A stretch of DNA of 64,000 bases from Squalus acanthias. Taxonomy: Eukaryota. A model generated the notes under the pieces. It was not told where the DNA came from. It made no database searches and saw nothing but the letters and a program-made list of their open reading frames with translations. Location: contig CM059430.1 of assembly GCA_030390025.1 (NCBI GenBank), positions 61,814,001-61,878,000 of the forward strand, given 5' to 3'. Below are positions 1 through 57,961 of the stretch, piece by piece (position 1 is the stretch's first letter; each line of letters starts with the position of its first letter). A program made the position numbers and the translations under genes.

Positions 1-289
1 TGCCAACCACAATCCCGCGCCAATATCTGATACTCCATTCAGAACAGTGACGCGTGCCTCCCTGCAAGTTAGCAGCCCTGTGTATTCACCCTCTTTGCGT
101 ACGGTTTCCAATACATTCCGTCATTTTGATGTGCGCCGTAAAACAATTTATAAAATAAATGCAAACTCGAAGTTTAAAAAAACGACAGCGCGGATATCTC
201 TTGTGACATTATGTCTATAACAGCATGACGAGAGTAGACAAATGAGAATGTGCTCCTTTGAGTTAAAAAAAACTGTTTTTCTGTTAAAG

Positions 290-586
290 TTCCCCCAACT
301 CCCCTGAAAATCGCTCCTGTTGAAGGGATTTCAGCGACTTCTCTAAAACTCGAGTGTAAAACGACTGCCTTTTACCCGGAGCATTTAGAAATCTCATGGC
401 GAAGAGATGGTGTCGAAAATCTGACCGGGATAGTAACTGTGAAAAACAAGAACGCGGAGGGACTGTTTGAGGTTTCCAGCTCGTTGGAAGAAGCACAGCC
501 TGCCCAGAGCGGAGTTGTTTATACATGTCTGGTATCTCATGTCTCTCTTCTGGTGCCCACCAATATCAGCTACACCTTTAATCAAG
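290..586 (+). CDS. Gene 1, Ig C1-set exon copy A (SIRP-like inhibitory receptor)
   Basis: ttaaag|...|gtaag, 297 nt, phase 1-1. Encodes (V)PPTPLKIAP...LECKTTAFYPEHLEISWRRDG...FEVSSSL...YTCLVSHVSL..., with the C1 hallmarks C-x3-FYP, W and YxCxVxH. Confidence 0.9.
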
Positions 587-1081
587 GTAAGATTGGAAAC
601 ATTTACAGCGGGGAGCGGGGATCTGATCCAACCTGTAATTACTTATTAAACATTTAGCTGGGTAGCTGTTGAACCCCGAGGATATAGGGTAACTGTGAAA
701 TGTATTTACTCTCAGTGTCACATCAATGGGAACGAAATAAAAATATTCCAGATGGTTTGTAAGTGAAGGAGAGAGAATATCTCGCTGAAGAGATCCGCAA
801 CGGGAGGTTGATGTGCGAACTGTTCAAAAGTTGAAAGATCATTCCTCGTCAAATTCTTGCCAAATAAAACAAAATTACGCACCAAATTGATCCATTCTAC
901 CAGATTTACTTTTACATCCTGTTTATTTAAAATGGAATATATGGAACTGTTATTGAGTAGATTGAGCCTATACCCTCGGGAGTTTAGAAGAATGAGACGT
1001 GATCTCATTGAAAGATAAAAGATTCTGATGGGGATTGACAAGATAGATGCTGAGAGGCTGTTTCCCCCAGCTGGAGTATGC

Positions 1082-1220
1082 AATTTAATGTAAAAAACTG
1101 GAAGTGGTTCATTTGATCTCCTGAATGCGAGTGTCGCCGACTCCGGAGTGCATTACTGTAAAGTAAAACATCATCTAAAAGCTAGTGGAGATAGAAGTGG
1201 CTCCCAGCTGATTGTGTACG
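1082..1220 (+). pseudogene. 3' half of a VJ-type Ig V exon (duplication remnant)
   Basis: Encodes KTGSGSFDLLNASVADSGVHYCKVKHHLKASGDRSGSQLIVY followed by a |gtaag donor. DSGxxYC and a J-like G strand are present. The 5' half is replaced by a CR1 fragment. Confidence 0.85.
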
Positions 1221-3580
1221 GTAAGTGTCATTGTGACGGGGAGTGGGAGATTCTCAGCAGTGTGCGATATATGTAAAACTCAATAGTGTGGGTAATTTGA
1301 ACGTTTATCACTTGACGAAAACCAGGTGATAGCAAAGTCGTTTTACACTTCTCCCGATTTGCTTTTCCATTGACCCGGTGTACAACCGCCCGCTGATTCG
1401 CTAGCGCCCGGTTTGCGCTACTGCCTCAGCTCAATTTCACCCCTTCATTGTCCGCATGACATTCCAAAGTGCTTTGCGTCCAATGAGTTCTTTTGAAAGT
1501 GCAGTTACAATTATTAAGGAGGCAAGATACTGAAATGGTATAAATGTTTAAGTCTTGGCTTGAAATTAATAAATGGGATAAGATGGCGAAATTCCTTCTC
1601 ACCAAAATAGCGGTGCCAAGGAGCCACAATGGGAACAATTTTAACACCTCCGAAGTCAGGTATTTTGTACTTCATTAAAGGCCAGCTCCGCCGCCCCAAC
1701 AAGGTGCCTTCATCACAAACTCAACAGAACAATGTCCTGCTACAATCGTGGTTATTGCACACGCCAGGGAACATTTCGGCTCCAATACTTGAAATTGCCA
1801 ATCTAATATTTTCTGTACAGTATTGCCCAAAATCTGGACTTCTCTCTTCGCAAAGCCGGTGGATAATGGGACAATTGGAGCTTCCAAGATTGCGATGGAT
1901 AGATTTTTGTTAGGTCGGGGTATCAAGGAATATGGAGTTAAATGTACAAATGGATTTGAGCTACAGACTCAAGGGGCTAAATGGCCTCCTCCTGTTCCTG
2001 TATCCGCAGTTTAGGCTGTGCACTTGCTTTCATTGAGAACTTTTTTGAGACTGCCAAACTAATTTCACAAAGGAATCTTATAGCCCATTGAAAGGGAAGT
2101 GTTGGTCTTAACCCTCAATGCTGGATTCCATCCCAAGTCCTAGACCTTGCAGGAGAGTGTAGAAACCCAATGCTCCTGTTTGAACATCTGTCTTACGGCA
2201 ATTGGAATTTCTTTCATTCACTCACAACCTGTAAAGTACGGGCAGATTATCGCCGAAATTGCTATAAACGCCTGGGCTCCCGTATTTGCAATTCATGATT
2301 TCCATTTCCATTCTACCAATCACCGTCTGAAGTTACGGCAGCAGATTAAGTGAACACTTTCGTCCTCCTCCTCCACGGAAATTCTACCGCATTATATATT
2401 ATGCCTAAACAGATCAGTGTTAAAGAATGGAGGAATTCTGAGCATTGGTTGAGCAATCAACACGGTGCTGCTGCGAATAATGGTAAAATAACTTTCCAAG
2501 TTAATAATACCCCTGATTTAAATGTTTGCTGTTACTACAAAATCGGAAAAGTAAACATTTAAAGCAAAGATGTTAAGGAGATTGTTTGTAATAAACTGAC
2601 AAAACAATGCAAACCTAATAAGGGACTGTACTTCCAGCTAAACAGTGACTGTAGCTCTAGCGGAAAAAGTTTCACATTAGTAAAAGACTATTGTAGGACT
2701 GATATAAGCAGAATCTTCTTCAGGCAACCCGTGTTCAACAGTCGAATAGGCTTGGGGAAGGACAAAAACCCTGGAATTATATAAGAGATGCACTCTGAGT
2801 TAGGAGTTCCTATTCGGATTCCCTCCTCTGTATGGATGTTGTGATCTACACAGAGATACATCATTACCAAGATAACCCTTTCATGACGTGAAAAATATTC
2901 CAGCCCTTGGTTCGCACTCTGGGGAAAGTACATTTAGTGAAAGCTGCAGGATCTGAAATCTCCACCACAGACACTCAAATGCTGGTATAGCAACTGTAAT
3001 GCACGAATATTAATCTATAGATATAACAGCATCCTGTCTGCAATCTGTATAGACATCAAAGATATTTCGATATATTGGTAAGAATTCTTCTTCTCAATAT
3101 TCACCGTTTATATAAAATATGTTTGCAATATATGAAATATCTAAAAAGTGAAGAATTTTTAAATAAACACACAAAATGTTTAATACTCCAAAGATTATCA
3201 ATGAATAACGAGAAGCGATTCCACTGTTCGTGCAGACTGGGTTGCGCTCTCTCCGATATATTCGGACAGGAACCTCACTTGGAGTCACTGCTGCAAACCA
3301 CAATCCCTCGCCAGGATCTGATACTCCATTCAGAACAGTGACGCGTGCCTCCCTGCAAGTTAGCAGCCCTGTGTATTCACCCTCTTTGCGTACGGTTTCC
3401 AATACATTCCGTCATTTTGATGTGCGCCGTAAAACAATTTATAAAATAAATGCAAACTCGAAGTTTAAAAAAACGACAGCGCGGATAACTCTTGTGACAT
3501 TAGGTCTATAACAGCATGACGAGAGTAGACAAATGAGAATGTGCTCCTTTGAATTAAAAAAAACTTTTTTTCTGTTAAAG

Positions 3581-3877
3581 TTCCCCCAACTCCCCTGAAA
3601 ATCGCTCCTGTTGAAGGGATTTCAGCGACTTCCCTAAAACTCGAATGTAAAACGACTGCCTTTTACCCGGAGCATTTAGAAATCTCCTGGCGAAGAGATG
3701 GTGTCGAAAATCTGACCGGAATAGCAACTGTGAAAAAGAAGAACGCGGAGGGATTGTTTGAGGTTTCCAGCTCGTTGGAAGAAGCACAGCCTGCCCAGAG
3801 CGGAGTTGTTTATACATGTCTGGTATCTCATGTCTCTCTTCTGGTGCCCGCCAATGTCAGCTACACCTTTAATCGAG
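3581..3877 (+). CDS. Gene 1, Ig C1-set exon copy B
   Basis: Same splice sites and 297 nt length as copy A, open frame, 10 substitutions versus copy A by manual count. Confidence 0.9.
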
Positions 3878-4239
3878 GTAAGATTGGAAACATTTACAGC
3901 GGGGAGCGGGGATCTGATCCAACCTGTAATTACTTATTAAAAATTTAGCTGGGTAGCTGTTCAACCCCGAGGATATACGGTAAATGTGAAATGTATTTAC
4001 TCTCGGTGTCACATCAATGGGAACGAAATAAAAATATTCCAGATGGTTTGTAAGTGAAGGAGGGAGAATATCTCGCTGAAGAGATCGGAAACGGGAGGTT
4101 GATGTGCGAAATGCTCAAAAGTTGAAAGATCATTCCTCGTCAAATTCTTGCCAAATAAAATAAAATTACCCACCAAATTGATCCATTCTACAAGATTTAC
4201 TTTTACATCCTGTTTATTTAAAATGGAATATATGGAACT

Positions 4240-4665
4240 GTTACTGAGTAGATTGAGCCTATACTGTCTGGTGTTTTCATGAATGAGAGATGATCTCATT
4301 GAAAGGGGGTATTGACAAAATAGATGCTGAGAGGCTGTTTCCCTTGGCTGGAGAGGCTAGAATTAGGGGGCATAGTCCCAGGATAAGCGTCGGCCATTTA
4401 TGACTGAGATGAAGAGGAATTTCTTCACTCTGACGGTTGTGAATCTTTGGAATTCTCTACCCCAGAGGGCTGTGGCTGGGTCGTTGAATATATTCAAGGC
4501 TGAGGTAGATAGATTTTTGGACTCTAAGGGAATCAAGGGATGTGGGGATAGGGCGGGAAAGTGGACTTGAGGTCGAAGATCAGCCATGATGTTATTGAAT
4601 GGTGGAGCAGGCTCGAGGGTTCGTATGGCCTACACCTGCTCCTAATTCTTATGTTCTTCTTATGT
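4240..4665 (+). mobile_element. CR1 LINE 3' end (partial duplicate at 948-1078)
   Basis: ORF2 C-terminus-like sequence, then cagccatgat...gaatggtggagcaggctcga and a ttcttatg tail. Confidence 0.85.
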
Positions 4666-5341: not shown

Positions 5342-5446
5342 GTACTGATCACAAATTTGCACTGATATTTGGATGTGCAGGGGGCGCATTGGCAATTTTA
5401 CTGTTGATAATAATTTTGCTGCAACTCAGATTGAAGGCTTCAGACG
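5342..5446 (+). CDS. Gene 1 transmembrane exon
   Basis: cctgtag|...|gtaag, 105 nt, phase 1-1. Encodes (G)TDHKFALIFGCAGGALAILLLIIILLQLRLKASD; no charged residue in the TM core. Confidence 0.88.
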
Positions 5447-6170: not shown

Positions 6171-6214
6171 GCATTAAGAGAAATTCTGTGGAAGCGGGTC
6201 AGAGTGAAGAGCCG
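6171..6214 (+). CDS. Gene 1 cytoplasmic exon 1
   Basis: Strong polypyrimidine acceptor tttcctttag, 44 nt, phase 1-0. Encodes (G)IKRNSVEAGQSEEP, donor gtaggg. Confidence 0.78.
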
Positions 6215-7129: not shown

Positions 7130-7240
7130 GTTAGACAAGGACCAAGTGAAGAGATTGCCGCCTACGCTAATCTAAACTTGAGACACGACAGAGGACCTCC
7201 CAAACGGAGACAGGAGAAAGAGAACACCGTCTATTCCCAG
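7130..7240 (+). CDS. Gene 1 cytoplasmic exon 2 (Tyr motifs)
   Basis: ttttacag|VRQGPSEEIAAYANLNLRHDRGPPKRRQEKENTVYSQ|gtacat, 111 nt, phase 0-0. Confidence 0.82.
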
Positions 7241-8074: not shown

Positions 8075-8179
8075 ACGAAGCAAGGAACCAGCGACAGACT
8101 GACTTCCGCCACTCTCGTAACCAACACCACGAAAAACGCGAAACCCAGACAGAAAGAGGAGAGCACGGTGTATGCCCAG
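8075..8179 (+). CDS. Gene 1 cytoplasmic exon 3
   Basis: gttacag|TKQGTSDRLTSATLVTNTTKNAKPRQKEESTVYAQ|gtacag, 105 nt, phase 0-0, homologous to the neighbouring exons. Confidence 0.82.
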
Positions 8180-8544: not shown

Positions 8545-8685
8545 ACTAAACAAAGAGGCGGAGACAACAAGCTGACTTACGCCGCTCTGCAGCTTGCTGA
8601 TTTCAAGAAAACATCAAAATCGAAACACCAAGACAAGCGGGCTGTGTACGCAGAAGTAAACGTGAGAAACAAAGAGAGAAGCTGA
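8545..8685 (+). CDS. Gene 1 last coding exon, ITIM plus ITSM-like motif
   Basis: tttcacag|TKQRGGDNKLTYAALQLADFKKTSKSKHQDKRAVYAEVNVRNKERS*. LTYAAL is a canonical ITIM (compare LTYADL in human SIRP-alpha). Confidence 0.87.
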   Translation, partial: TKQRGGDNKLTYAALQLADFKKTSKSKHQDKRAVYAEVNVRNKERS

Positions 8686-22096: not shown

Positions 22097-24779
22097 AAAA
22101 AAGGGGGACCAAGAAATTGATAAAGAAAGTGAAAATGGAATATGAGCACAAACTAGCGAAAAATATAAAAACGGATTGTAAAAGCTTCTATAAGTATGTG
22201 AAAAGGAAAAGACTGGCGAAGGTAAATGTAGGTCCTTTACAGTCAGAGACGGGAGAATTTATAATGGGGAATGAGGAAATGGCGAAGAAATTAAATAAAT
22301 ACATTGGGCCAGATATTCGGCTCTCCGGATTCCTGCGGGTGCAAGCATCGCGTGCGTACTTACCTACCGCACCTGCCATTGTGCTTCAGGCCCACGAGGA
22401 ATTCGGCTCCTGGGCTTCCTGCAGCTGCTGGCGCGCAGTGCTCGTGTATCCCAGAGGTGCAGTTAGTTCGAAGCGTCCCCTGGGATCTTGTGGGCCATGG
22501 AGAGCCAATCGTAGCAGGGAATTTTCATTCATAGATTTGACAGCAATACTTGTCAAATCTATGAATAGAGATCAGACCCAAAACCACACAAAATGTCAAA
22601 TAAATTTAAAAAAAAATCACATTTTGAAAATAACTATAAATTACATAAATTAACTAATTAAACAAAAATATAAATTTTTGAAAAAATTAATTATACTTTT
22701 AACGGTGCTAAAAATAAACTTACCTTTCTTTAAAGTATGTAAAAAAGATAAACCTATTGAAAAAATGTTTAAATTGTACTTAATTAACCACTTACCTTGT
22801 TAAAAACAGGCCTTGTGCCTCCTTTTTAAATGTGCAGCTTCATGGAGAAACCTGAAAAAAAAAACGCGGTTCGTTGCGTGCGCGCTGCCTCTCCTGCGCA
22901 CGCGTTCGATCTCTGAACCCCTTCCTTCAGGGGAACGGAAGTTCCGGTTTCCAGCGCATGCGCAGTGCATGTGTGAAACCGGCACATCAGGTGGTCTTAC
23001 GGGTGAGTACACAATGCGTACTCACCCGTGGAGAGCCGAATTTTTGGCCCTTTGTTTCTGTCTTCACGGAAGAAGACACAAAACACCTCCCATAATACGA
23101 GAAAAGCAAGGGTGTGACGAGTATGAGGAACTTAAAGAAATTATTATTAGTAAAAATACAGTACTAGCAAAATTAATGGGACTAAAAGTCGATAAATTCC
23201 AAGTACCAGATGGCCTACATTCTAGGGTTTTGAAAGAGGTGTCCATTGGAATAGTGGACGCATTGGTTGTCATCTTCCAAAATTCTATAGATTTTGGAAC
23301 GGTTCCTGCAGATTGGAGGATAGCAAATGTAACCCCACTATTTAAGAAAGGAGGGAGGGAGAAAACGGTGAACTACAGATCTGTTACCCTCACATCAGTA
23401 GTTGGGAAATGCTGGAGTCTATGAAAAAGGATGCAATAACTGGGCACTTAAAAAGTAATAGTAAGATTGGGCAAAGTCAATATGGATTTATGAAAGGGAA
23501 ATCCTGTTTGACAAACCTATTGGTGTTCTTTGAGGATGTAACTAGTGGAGTAGACAAAGGGGAACCGGTAGATGTGGTGTATCTGGATTTTGAGAACGCA
23601 TTCGATAAGGTCCCACACAAGAGGTAGGTGAACTAAATTAGGGCACATGTGATTGGGGGTAATATACTGGCATGGATTGAGAATTGGTTAACAGACAGAA
23701 AACAAAGAGTAGGGAAAAACGGGTATTTTTCAGTATGGCAGGCTGTGACTAGTGGGGTACTGCAAGGATCAGTACTTGGGCCCCAGCTATTCGCAATCTA
23801 TATCAATGATTTGGATGAGGGGACTAAATGTAACATTTCCAAATTTGCTGATAATACAAAGCTAGGTGGCAGTGTCTGTTGCGAAGAGGATGTGAAGAGG
23901 CTTCAAGTGGATCTCGACAGGCTCAGTGATTGGGCGAGAACATGGCAGATTGAATATAATGTGGATAAATGTGAAGTTATTCACTTTGGTAGAAAAAACA
24001 GAAAGGCAGATTGTTTCCTAAATGGTGAAAGATTGGGGAATGCAGATGCTCAAAGGGACCTGAGCGTCCTTGTACATGGGTAACTGAAATTGAATGTGCA
24101 GGTGCAGCAAGCCATTAGGAAGGCAAATGGTATGCTGGCTTTCATTACAAGAGGATTTGAGTACAGGAGTAAAGAAGTCATACTCCAATTATATAGGGCC
24201 TTGGTGAGGCCACACCTGAAGTACTGTGTAAAATTTTGGTCTCCTTACCGAAGGAAGGATATATTTGCCACAGAGGGATTTCACGAAGGCTCATGAGATT
24301 GATTCCTGTGATGGTGGGACTGTCGTATGAGAAGAGATTGAGTAAACTAGGCCTGTTCTATCTTGAATTCAGAAGAATCAGAGGTAATCTCATTGAAGCA
24401 TACAAAATTATTACAGGGCTTGATAGGATGGATGCTGGGGAATCCTTCCCTTAGCTGGGGAGTCTATAACCAGGGCCCACAGCCTCAAGATAAAGGGTAG
24501 GCCATTCAAGACTGAGATGAGAAGAAATTTCTTCACGCAGAAGGTGGTGAATCTTTGGAATTCTCTACCCCAGAGGACTGTGGAGGCTCAGTCATTGGGT
24601 ATATTCAAAACAGAAGTCGATAGATTTCCGACTAGTAAGGGCATCAAAGGATGTCGCAATAGGTCCGGTGAATAGAGTTGAGGCAGAAGATCAGCCATGA
24701 TCTCATTGAATGGCAGAACAGGCTCGAAGGGCCGTATGGCCTACTCCTGCTCCTATTTCTTATGTTCTTATGTTCTTAT
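22097..24779 (+). mobile_element. CR1 LINE nested in the opposite-strand CR1
   Basis: Reads YLDFENAFDKVPH, GVLQGSVLGP and FADN; ttcttatg tail. Confidence 0.9.
22306..23050 (+). mobile_element. PIF/Harbinger-type MITE (~745 bp)
   Basis: TIRs gggccagatattcggctctcc and ggagagccgaatttttggccc, 3-bp flanks att/ttt, AT-rich core; cleanly interrupts a CR1. Confidence 0.85.
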
Positions 24780-56991: not shown

Positions 56992-57754
56992 GGCCAGAAA
57001 TTGGAGTTCGATGGTTGCCGCGGGGGTAAGGATCCCCCGCGATATCGCACTCCGCGCCCACCTTTATGGTTTTGGCCCACACGTACTTCAGTTCCTGGGC
57101 CTCTCCCTGGTGCCGGCGTACAGTGTGTGCGTGTCCCAGAGGCGCAGTTAGTGCGATGTGAGCTCTGGGATCACATGGGCCAGTTAGAGCCAATGGCAGC
57201 ACACCATCTTTCATTCAAAGTTTTGACAGCAAGAGCTGTCAAAACTATGAATACAACAAGCCCCCAAAAGAACAGCTAAACCACAATTAAATTAAAAAAA
57301 AGCCATCACATTAATAAAATAACTATAGTTAAATAAATTAACCACTTTAAACAAAAATTTTAATTTTTGAAAAAATTTAAATTCTTTTTAAAAGTTATAA
57401 AAATAAACTTATGTTTCTTTAAAGTCTCTAAAAAAGATAAACCTGTTGAAAAAAAATTAAAATAATACTTCATTAATTACTTACCTTGTTAAAAGGGGGT
57501 CTTACGCCTGCTTTCTTTATGTGTAAAATCTTCAACACTTACCTGCGGGTTCAAACCTGAAAAAAAAACTAAGTGTGCTGCGTGCGCACAACCTGTAGCG
57601 CGGATGTGGTTCACTTAGGAACCGCCCCCTTTGCCATACACGAAGTGCCGGTTTCCTGCTCATGCGCAGTGCATGCAGCAAACCGGCACTTCGGGACCTA
57701 ATACGCGAGAGTACACAGTGCGTACTCTCCCGCATCAGGTCTAATTTTCGGGCC
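56992..57754 (+). mobile_element. Harbinger-type MITE
   Basis: aat|ggccagaaatt...aattttcgggcc|aat; collinear with 22306-23050. Confidence 0.88.
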
Positions 57755-57961
57755 AATGGATTTCGGTAGAAATTCTGCGCCAACTTTCACTTGGGAGTAC
57801 TACATGTTGACAGGTTTTTATGTCCCAGTCTGATGTAAGTCAACTGGAAAAGTGCACAAACGAGTTATCCTCGTCTGAAATAGATTTGAAATGTGCTCAG
57901 CTCAACACAAAATTATCACATTACACTTAAAATATCAATAGGATGAATGTTATAAAATTAC

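Follow-up and report, generated by a model that had tools for sequence, protein, structure and literature searches.

An old, probably intragenic tandem duplication of a C1 exon and a predicted V-C1-C1 receptor in Squalus acanthias

A 64,000-nucleotide stretch of the Squalus acanthias genome (GCA_030390025.1, contig CM059430.1, positions 61814001-61878000; "the window", on a contig called C6 below) opens within a gene of the VJ-C1 receptor type whose C1-set exon has been doubled, probably by an intragenic tandem duplication: two head-to-tail copies are present, joined by one novel junction. The predicted product of this old duplication is probably an inhibitory receptor of V-C1-C1 layout (our rough probability is 0.6). 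The sequences compared below indicate that such domain doubling is recurrent in this paired-receptor family.

The tandem repeat, its junction and its age

Self-BLAST of the window aligns positions 1-1076 with 3292-4353 at 94.3% identity. When upstream DNA is added (negative coordinates count bases upstream of window position 1), the repeat extends head-to-tail to -2242..1076 against 1080..4353, at 92.2% identity (BLAST). This bears out the proposal, made in a sequence-only reading of the window, of a tandem repeat of about 3.29 kb starting in the middle of a V exon. The two units differ by 6.4% substitutions over 3271 aligned sites and by seven indel events, the two C1 exons (C1a and C1b) are offset by 3291, and the unit measures about 3.3 kb. 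Unit 1 starts 166 nucleotides (nt) into the intact 306-nt V exon and breaks off in a long interspersed nuclear element (LINE); in unit 2 this element runs on to about 4658. Many further copies of it lie in the window, and other copies give weak RVT_1 matches. The LINE in which the same reading let the unit end is indeed there; the name CR1, given to it in that reading, is presumptive and comes from the motif.

The V exon at the start of unit 2 is, as had been proposed, only a half exon: of the 306-nt exon only the 3' 140 nt are present, with one nucleotide inserted. Three untemplated bases separate it from the LINE, and a 23-mer across the junction occurs once in the genome, with one mismatch allowed. 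More units had been suspected upstream of the window; a third unit was found neither within 40 kb (blastn) nor within 70 kb (tblastn).

The same reading had named haplotype mis-assembly as the outcome that would overturn it. A repeat made by the assembler, from two haplotypes or two paralogs stitched in tandem, is compatible with the lack of a junction-spanning read from this species, but the divergence of 6.4% is about 30 times the heterozygosity of another shark species (pi 0.002, in a passage of PMC10587355), the half-V exon carries eight substitutions and an insertion seen in none of eight paralogs, as expected after a long time of neutral decay, untemplated bases stand at the junction, and the repeat region contains no N. 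We consider such an artefact very improbable. In four DNA runs, probably from other species (0.22 of the words at best, pieces 88-97% identical), no contig bridges the junction, and contigs that reach position 1080 continue as a normal V exon without the insertion at 1098; these runs could speak for presence only and allow no conclusion.

The duplication had been called recent. The unconverted intron, upstream of position 25, has 157 differences between the copies in 2093 sites (7.5%), which is comparable to the 7.4-8.3% that separate each copy from its nearest paralogs. By this divergence, equal to paralog distances, the duplication is old. With the epaulette shark germline rate of 7e-10 per generation, quoted from a passage of PMC10587355 and used only in support of "not recent", the estimate is tens of millions of generations per branch, a figure too large to be taken literally. 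Within the window the repeat seems younger (94%) because the non-coding DNA between about 25 and 921 has been homogenised: the best 300 non-coding sites hold 4 differences where the mean is 20 (permutation p 0.0005), and of the 26 shared-derived sites 11 are located in -99..289. These data point to gene conversion around C1 after the duplication.

The half-V exon has seven private replacement changes, one silent change and the 1-nt insertion (at 1098), all absent from the eight paralogs, a pattern of decay at the neutral rate. The matching part of the V exon in use (unit 1) has one private silent change and no replacement, where 4.3 would be expected under neutrality (P 0.013).

When the intron is taken as a whole, neither copy has a nearer sequence than the other copy (6.8% against 7.4-11.5%), and the two are sisters with 100% support. 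The support varies along the unit: it is 100% 3' of -899 and 55% in the 5' 1.2 kb, where the copies are 7.2-9.2% apart, no nearer than paralogs, and where shared-derived sites are few (4 in the 5' 1170 positions against 21 in the 1663 further 3'; Fisher p 0.013). Such a 5' part would fit an origin by deletion, in which a tandem pair of inhibitory paralogs, A (leader-V-C1-LINE) and B (from mid-V), was fused and conversion then made the C1 exons sister-like. The full sister support over the whole intron argues against this, as does the existence of four shared-derived sites in the 5' part, and we hold this origin to be possible but doubtful. The question concerns origin only, is independent of splicing and leaves the product the same. 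The origin that we prefer is a non-homologous tandem duplication, which would have copied half a V exon, an intron and a C1 exon within a VJ-C1 receptor gene already bearing an immunoreceptor tyrosine-based inhibitory motif (ITIM); the junction may have arisen by end-joining.

Gene model and use of the two C1 exons

Features of the duplicated gene, in window coordinates
Feature	Position	Strand	Remarks
Leader exon	-2680..-2626 (C6:61811320-61811374)	+	matches 7/8 close paralogs at 91-96%
Full VJ-type V exon	-2408..-2103 (C6:61811592-61811897)	+	306 nt; Pfam V-set; ends GDGSGSQLTV
Unit 1, 3' third	1..1076	+	unit starts at -2242 (C6:61811758), within the full V exon and ahead of window position 1
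Putative gene-conversion tract(s) around C1	25..921	+	non-coding DNA of the units unusually alike, shared derived bases
C1-set exon a (C1a)	290..586	+	297 nt, phase 1-1, open
LINE fragment where unit 1 breaks off	952..1076	+	acceptor-like pyrimidine-CAG ending at 1070
Junction bases	1077..1079	+	three untemplated bases between LINE and half-V
Half-V exon opening unit 2	1080..1220	+	donor GTAAGT retained
Repeat unit 2	1080..4353	+	half-V, intron, C1b, intron into LINE
C1-set exon b (C1b)	3581..3877	+	297 nt, phase 1-1, open
Transmembrane exon	5342..5446	+	uncharged segment, phase 1-1
Cytoplasmic exon 1	6171..6214	+	
Cytoplasmic exon 2	7130..7240	+	two tyrosine motifs: AAYANL, TVYSQ
Cytoplasmic exon 3	8075..8179	+	one tyrosine motif: TVYAQ
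Last coding exon and stop	8545..8685	+	canonical ITIM LTYAAL, plus AVYAEV

When the half-V exon is skipped, leader, V, C1a, C1b, transmembrane exon and four tail exons form an open frame of 486 codons, in agreement with the predicted V-C1-C1-transmembrane product, and the 1461 coding nt hold no disabling change. The description of the C1 exons also stands: both are open and in phase 1-1, have intact AG/GT sites and differ at 10 of 297 positions (five synonymous, five replacement). Both pass Pfam C1-set, and their splice sites are the same as in single-C1 paralogs. Five tyrosines are found in the tail, one in a motif of the canonical ITIM consensus and four in other tyrosine motifs. A lone ATG exon considered as the gene start was dropped in favour of the leader at -2680..-2626, which is conserved in seven of eight paralogs and gives the gene the same layout as its annotated homologs.

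The case for use of both C1 exons comes from their substitutions, with the substitution spectrum of the unconverted intron as neutral expectation. C1a has 3 replacements where 9.2 are expected (P 0.019), C1b has 2 where 7.8 are expected (P 0.016), and together they have 5 against 16.9 (P 0.0007). The 5 silent changes in C1 are about as many as neutrality predicts (6.0), which speaks against a simple homogenisation of the exon interior. On the same branch, the half-V exon has 7 replacements in 108 sites and C1b has 2 in 221 (Fisher p 0.007). The C1 distances of both copies fall within the range of intact single-C1 paralogs. These counts suggest purifying selection on both C1 exons.

The transcript would likely skip the dead half-V exon and splice 586 to 3581, joining the two C1 exons. 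The predicted receptor would be about one immunoglobulin (Ig) domain longer than its paralogs and might reach about 4 nm further; a passage of PMC11285650 gives about 8.4 nm for the two C1 domains of SIRP-alpha. It would presumably be expressed at the cell surface, and its tail tyrosines may recruit phosphatases, as is general for ITIMs.

Several points weigh against this reading. The direct contrast of replacement and silent changes inside C1 is not significant alone (5/221 against 5/73, one-sided p 0.07). Conversion has affected both C1 flanks, and one shared derived base lies inside the exon (577), so part of the low C1 divergence may come from conversion. The transmembrane and tail exons have 10 replacement and 2 silent private changes, as expected under neutrality (10.9 and 3.6). 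An ITIM-type tyrosine has also been lost: the LTYAAL-type tyrosine of cytoplasmic exon 3, present in two of three paralogs, is replaced here by Ser (8105-8107). Replacement and silent counts for the same exons are similar in the paralogs (13/5, 11/2 and 3/1), and a tail that changes at such a neutral-like rate does not speak for function. Low C1 replacement counts are also seen in two broken paralogs (6 and 3), so that an intact appearance is no proof of present use. The half-V exon keeps its strong GTAAGT donor, and the candidate acceptor in front of it has 12 pyrimidines in 20 positions, against 11 and 12 for the real C1 acceptors. The two V-C1-C1 proteins of other species discussed below, XP_043563363.1 and XP_032892405.1, offer a precedent for the layout, but they are predicted models, and the former, from Chiloscyllium plagiosum, has no transmembrane segment. 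The tyrosine of exon 3 has been separately lost in the paralog at 62.17 Mb, where it is replaced by His.

The splice signals of the half-V exon lend themselves to an unlikely alternative, a poison exon. The donor at 1220 would be used with a LINE-derived acceptor at 1070 or 1076, and the resulting stop would cause the transcript to decay or yield a short V-C1 protein that is secreted, leaving C1b, the transmembrane exon and the tail partly or wholly silent. With acceptor 1070 the exon measures 150 nt and its stop is at codon 7, and with acceptor 1076 it measures 144 nt and the stop is at codon 5; the five AG sites with at least 12 pyrimidines in 620-1200 all give early stops. Since the half-V exon would carry a stop, any inclusion would truncate the protein, and the long form needs skipping. 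The typical exon size, the donor, an acceptor as pyrimidine-rich as the real ones and the neutral-like rate of the tail are all in line with a poison exon; the AG at 1070 is also present in both of the two paralogs that have the LINE. It fits poorly with the 2 replacements in C1b where 7.8 are expected, or with the undamaged state of C1b, the transmembrane exon and the four tail exons (about 800 coding nt and 11 splice sites) after about 3% branch divergence; moreover, paralog tails without the duplication evolve alike. In a milder variant, the half-V exon would be included in part of the transcripts, which is compatible with these data.

It is also rather improbable that each transcript contains a single C1 exon, by skipping or alternative use, the protein staying V-C1 and the second exon being kept by conversion or alternate use. 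The conversion tract around C1 and the phase symmetry of the exons, either of which can be dropped in frame, would allow this, and in another subfamily the downstream C1 copy has lost its acceptor and has stops. Yet neutrality is rejected for each copy separately (P about 0.02), and nothing would seem to force mutual exclusion on two exons that have the same strong sites and are separated by 3 kb.

Finally, the gene might be intact in frame and no longer expressed, the doubling being a drifting by-product. Gene death is common in the cluster (three of eight close paralogs are broken and a fourth has a gap in its transmembrane exon) and the tail evolves as if neutral, but the coding sequence is free of disabling changes, and V and C1 appear constrained over the branch, which makes this improbable. 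One putative RNA run from another species, in which the V, C1 and transmembrane bins have no coverage, is uninformative.

The family, its cluster and repeated doubling

The nearest proteins to the window come without exception from sharks, rays and a chimaera. The V domain of the studied gene is 60-77% identical to that of the nearest RefSeq models called "SHPS-1-like", an automatic annotation, with E values down to 1e-45. These models, among them the single-C1 protein XP_067906043.1 of Heterodontus francisci, belong to the same family and share the transmembrane segment and tyrosine-motif tail. By these matches and by its place among the C1 matches described below, the gene is a member of a chondrichthyan SHPS-1-like VJ-C1 cluster family.

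Among 113 family-type proteins (gene models including isoforms, with a C1 score of at least 45 bits), 81 are V-C1, 29 C1 only, two V-C1-C1 and one C1-V-C1. The same V-C1-C1 doubling is thus already present in RefSeq models from two further chondrichthyan species. In XP_043563363.1 the tandem C1 domains are identical at 93 of 98 positions; in XP_032892405.1, from Amblyraja radiata, at 94 of 97, and this model has a transmembrane segment and a tyrosine tail. The three kept doublings all have tyrosine-motif tails. The C1-V-C1 order of XP_007902905.1 (Callorhinchus milii) is probably due to the merging of two neighbouring genes by the annotation.

A tree built from 29 C1 domains shows every tandem pair as a clade of its own, and a single clade of the three doublings is rejected (p-AU 5.5e-5). 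Concerted evolution could mimic such pairwise clades; separate gains in the three species are likely because many single-C1 relatives lie between the pairs. A layout acquired independently of mammalian SIRP-alpha, as the sequence-only reading had it, is in keeping with the single C1 found in all eight close paralogs and in 81 of 84 family proteins with V and C1. A search of the openly available literature found no description of the shark family or of its C1 doubling.

In the 3.7 Gb genome, a C1a query (150 of 510 candidates scored) gives at least 138 matches, at least 128 of them in the part of C6 that surrounds the window, from 57.5 to 76.9 Mb. The VJ-C1 family is thus spread over about 19 Mb of C6, a cluster which is itself the larger story. 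The eight closest paralogs have one V and one C1 each within the 20 kb examined. Three have the same transmembrane segment and tail as the studied gene; the five others have a different transmembrane segment, which in four contains an Arg and is followed by a short tail. Three of the eight are clearly broken, and the gap in the transmembrane exon of the fourth is of 1 nt. From its exons, the cluster appears as one of paired receptors with frequent gene death.

Related genes at C6:68148850-68153042 and C6:75471845-75476133 have V-C1 and then, 4 kb on, a second C1 that has lost its acceptor and shares a stop at the first Cys codon, as expected for an older C1 doubling that decayed. From these comparisons, V-C1 is the norm of the family, with at least three kept C1 doublings and one decayed. 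Doubling of C1 may be an occasional, recurrent outcome of cluster turnover, sometimes kept and sometimes lost.

The other close C1 pairs were chosen by eye (same strand, less than about 6 kb apart), and none of those on C6, C3243 and C284 counts as a kept V-C1-C1. The pair 75616871/75620544 is two partial genes with their own V each, the second V and transmembrane exon being frameshifted; the locus, C6:75614783-75621900, is a tandem partial gene duplication with V-C1 and then leader-V-C1-half C1-transmembrane exon. In the pairs 67894531/67900437 and 61759778/61765825 a broken C1 lies upstream of the V of another gene, and at 62076542/62077461 an insertion has cut a single exon in two. The matches on C3243 and C284 belong to Ig heavy-like genes; the one at C3243:93001-113000 has many C1 exons in internal repeats that are 91-93% identical, with several copies on the contig.

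A second gene of the window, on the minus strand (63346-63107, 60820-60510, 59136-59014), had been taken for a single-C1 paralog. It has one C1, but it is a broken family member: the 5' end of its V is replaced by a repeat also found at 22435-23059 and 57121-57758, and its C1 is frameshifted. Its transmembrane exon is open, and a possible remnant of its tail lies near 50768-50637. The C1 of a close paralog on an unplaced contig (C3468:41509-41830) is frameshifted too; its leader is the sole one of the type found in annotated homologs of other sharks, the studied gene and seven paralogs sharing another.

Comparison with SIRP and UrIg

SIRP-alpha and SIRP-gamma of amniotes (PDB 2WNG, 4I2X) have in common with the studied gene a VJ-type domain, two C1-set domains (predicted here), a transmembrane segment, a tail with an LTYAAL-type ITIM, and the position of an ITIM-bearing member near members with a basic transmembrane residue (paired genes). 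They differ in that identity is 20-22% only, the C1 domains here are 95% identical copies, and the norm of the shark family is one C1. The single-exon V with a joined J-like GxG strand is not diagnostic of SIRP; according to a passage of PMC11599192, single-exon VJ domains are also found in other VJ receptors.

Searches beyond layout are divided. By language-model features of the Heterodontus homolog, SIRP-alpha clusters are the top two Atlas clusters (0.96). The AlphaFold model of XP_043563363.1, used as a stand-in for the studied protein, has three Ig domains (mean pLDDT 69, domains mostly 80-97), and its best PDB folds are the ectodomains of SIRP-gamma and SIRP-alpha, with 20-22% identity and whole-chain TM-scores of 0.32-0.38, largely because of the shared layout. 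A family profile against PDB places SIRPs at ranks 5 and 16, and in sequence comparisons SIRP-alpha is equalled or outranked by UrIg2 and antibody chains. With V alone, SIRP is absent from the 34 PDB matches; with C1 alone, it is absent from the best 60 of 915.

The SIRP genes of human chromosome 20 neighbour NSFL1C, SNPH and PDYN. In this genome SEP-domain and syntaphilin-family genes are on C8 and C11 and none on C6, and the 200 kb around either SEP gene contain no V or C1 match better than E 0.02. The opioid family search gives one weak match, on C9, and is uninformative, as is a Pfam CD47 search of the genome, which gave no match and had no positive control. Synteny is a defining test of SIRP, and its outcome lowers the likelihood of SIRP descent; a translocation would hide orthology. 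The gene is thus best described as SIRP-like in layout and tail, and any SIRP membership would be tentative.

A passage of PMC9652883 states that the origin of SIRP is unknown, and passages of PMC10751288 and PMC12227049 present non-rearranging VJ-C1 receptors as the foremost models for the precursor from which antibodies and T-cell receptors came. It is conceivable, though speculative and on balance unlikely, that the shark/ray VJ-C1 cluster is the sister or source of SIRP and that selection drove inhibitory members to SIRP-alpha length at least three separate times. The family would then offer a replay of the gain of the second C1 by SIRP-alpha, and pairs with one and two C1 domains and about 90% identical V domains could test whether reach tunes inhibitory signalling.

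Whatever the ancestry, one mapped event of 3.3 kb turns V-C1 into V-C1-C1, and this is repeated in one family. The SIRP layout is then easily reached, and a gene that has it is only weakly marked as of SIRP ancestry. Changes in the number of Ig domains are common in paired-receptor clusters (KIR, LILR, CEACAM), which limits the surprise of the doubling. Near-identical paralogs with one and two C1 exons lend themselves to testing what ectodomain length does in an inhibitory receptor.

UrIg and UrIg2, non-rearranging antibody-like VJ-C1 genes of sharks (PDB 9DMX; passages of PMC12227049), have, like the studied gene, a single-exon VJ and several C1, and are the best PDB match for both C1a and the family profile. 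UrIg, encoded in the major histocompatibility complex, is secreted as a disulfide-linked dimer, and UrIg2 is linked to the Ig heavy-chain/T-cell receptor complex. Whereas a UrIg is secreted, lacks a transmembrane segment and has three or more C1 domains, the studied gene has two C1 exons and open transmembrane and inhibitory tail exons and lies in a large paired-receptor cluster. UrIg2, with six repeat domains that are more than 90% identical (again in a passage of PMC12227049), provides a precedent for C1 amplification in sharks.

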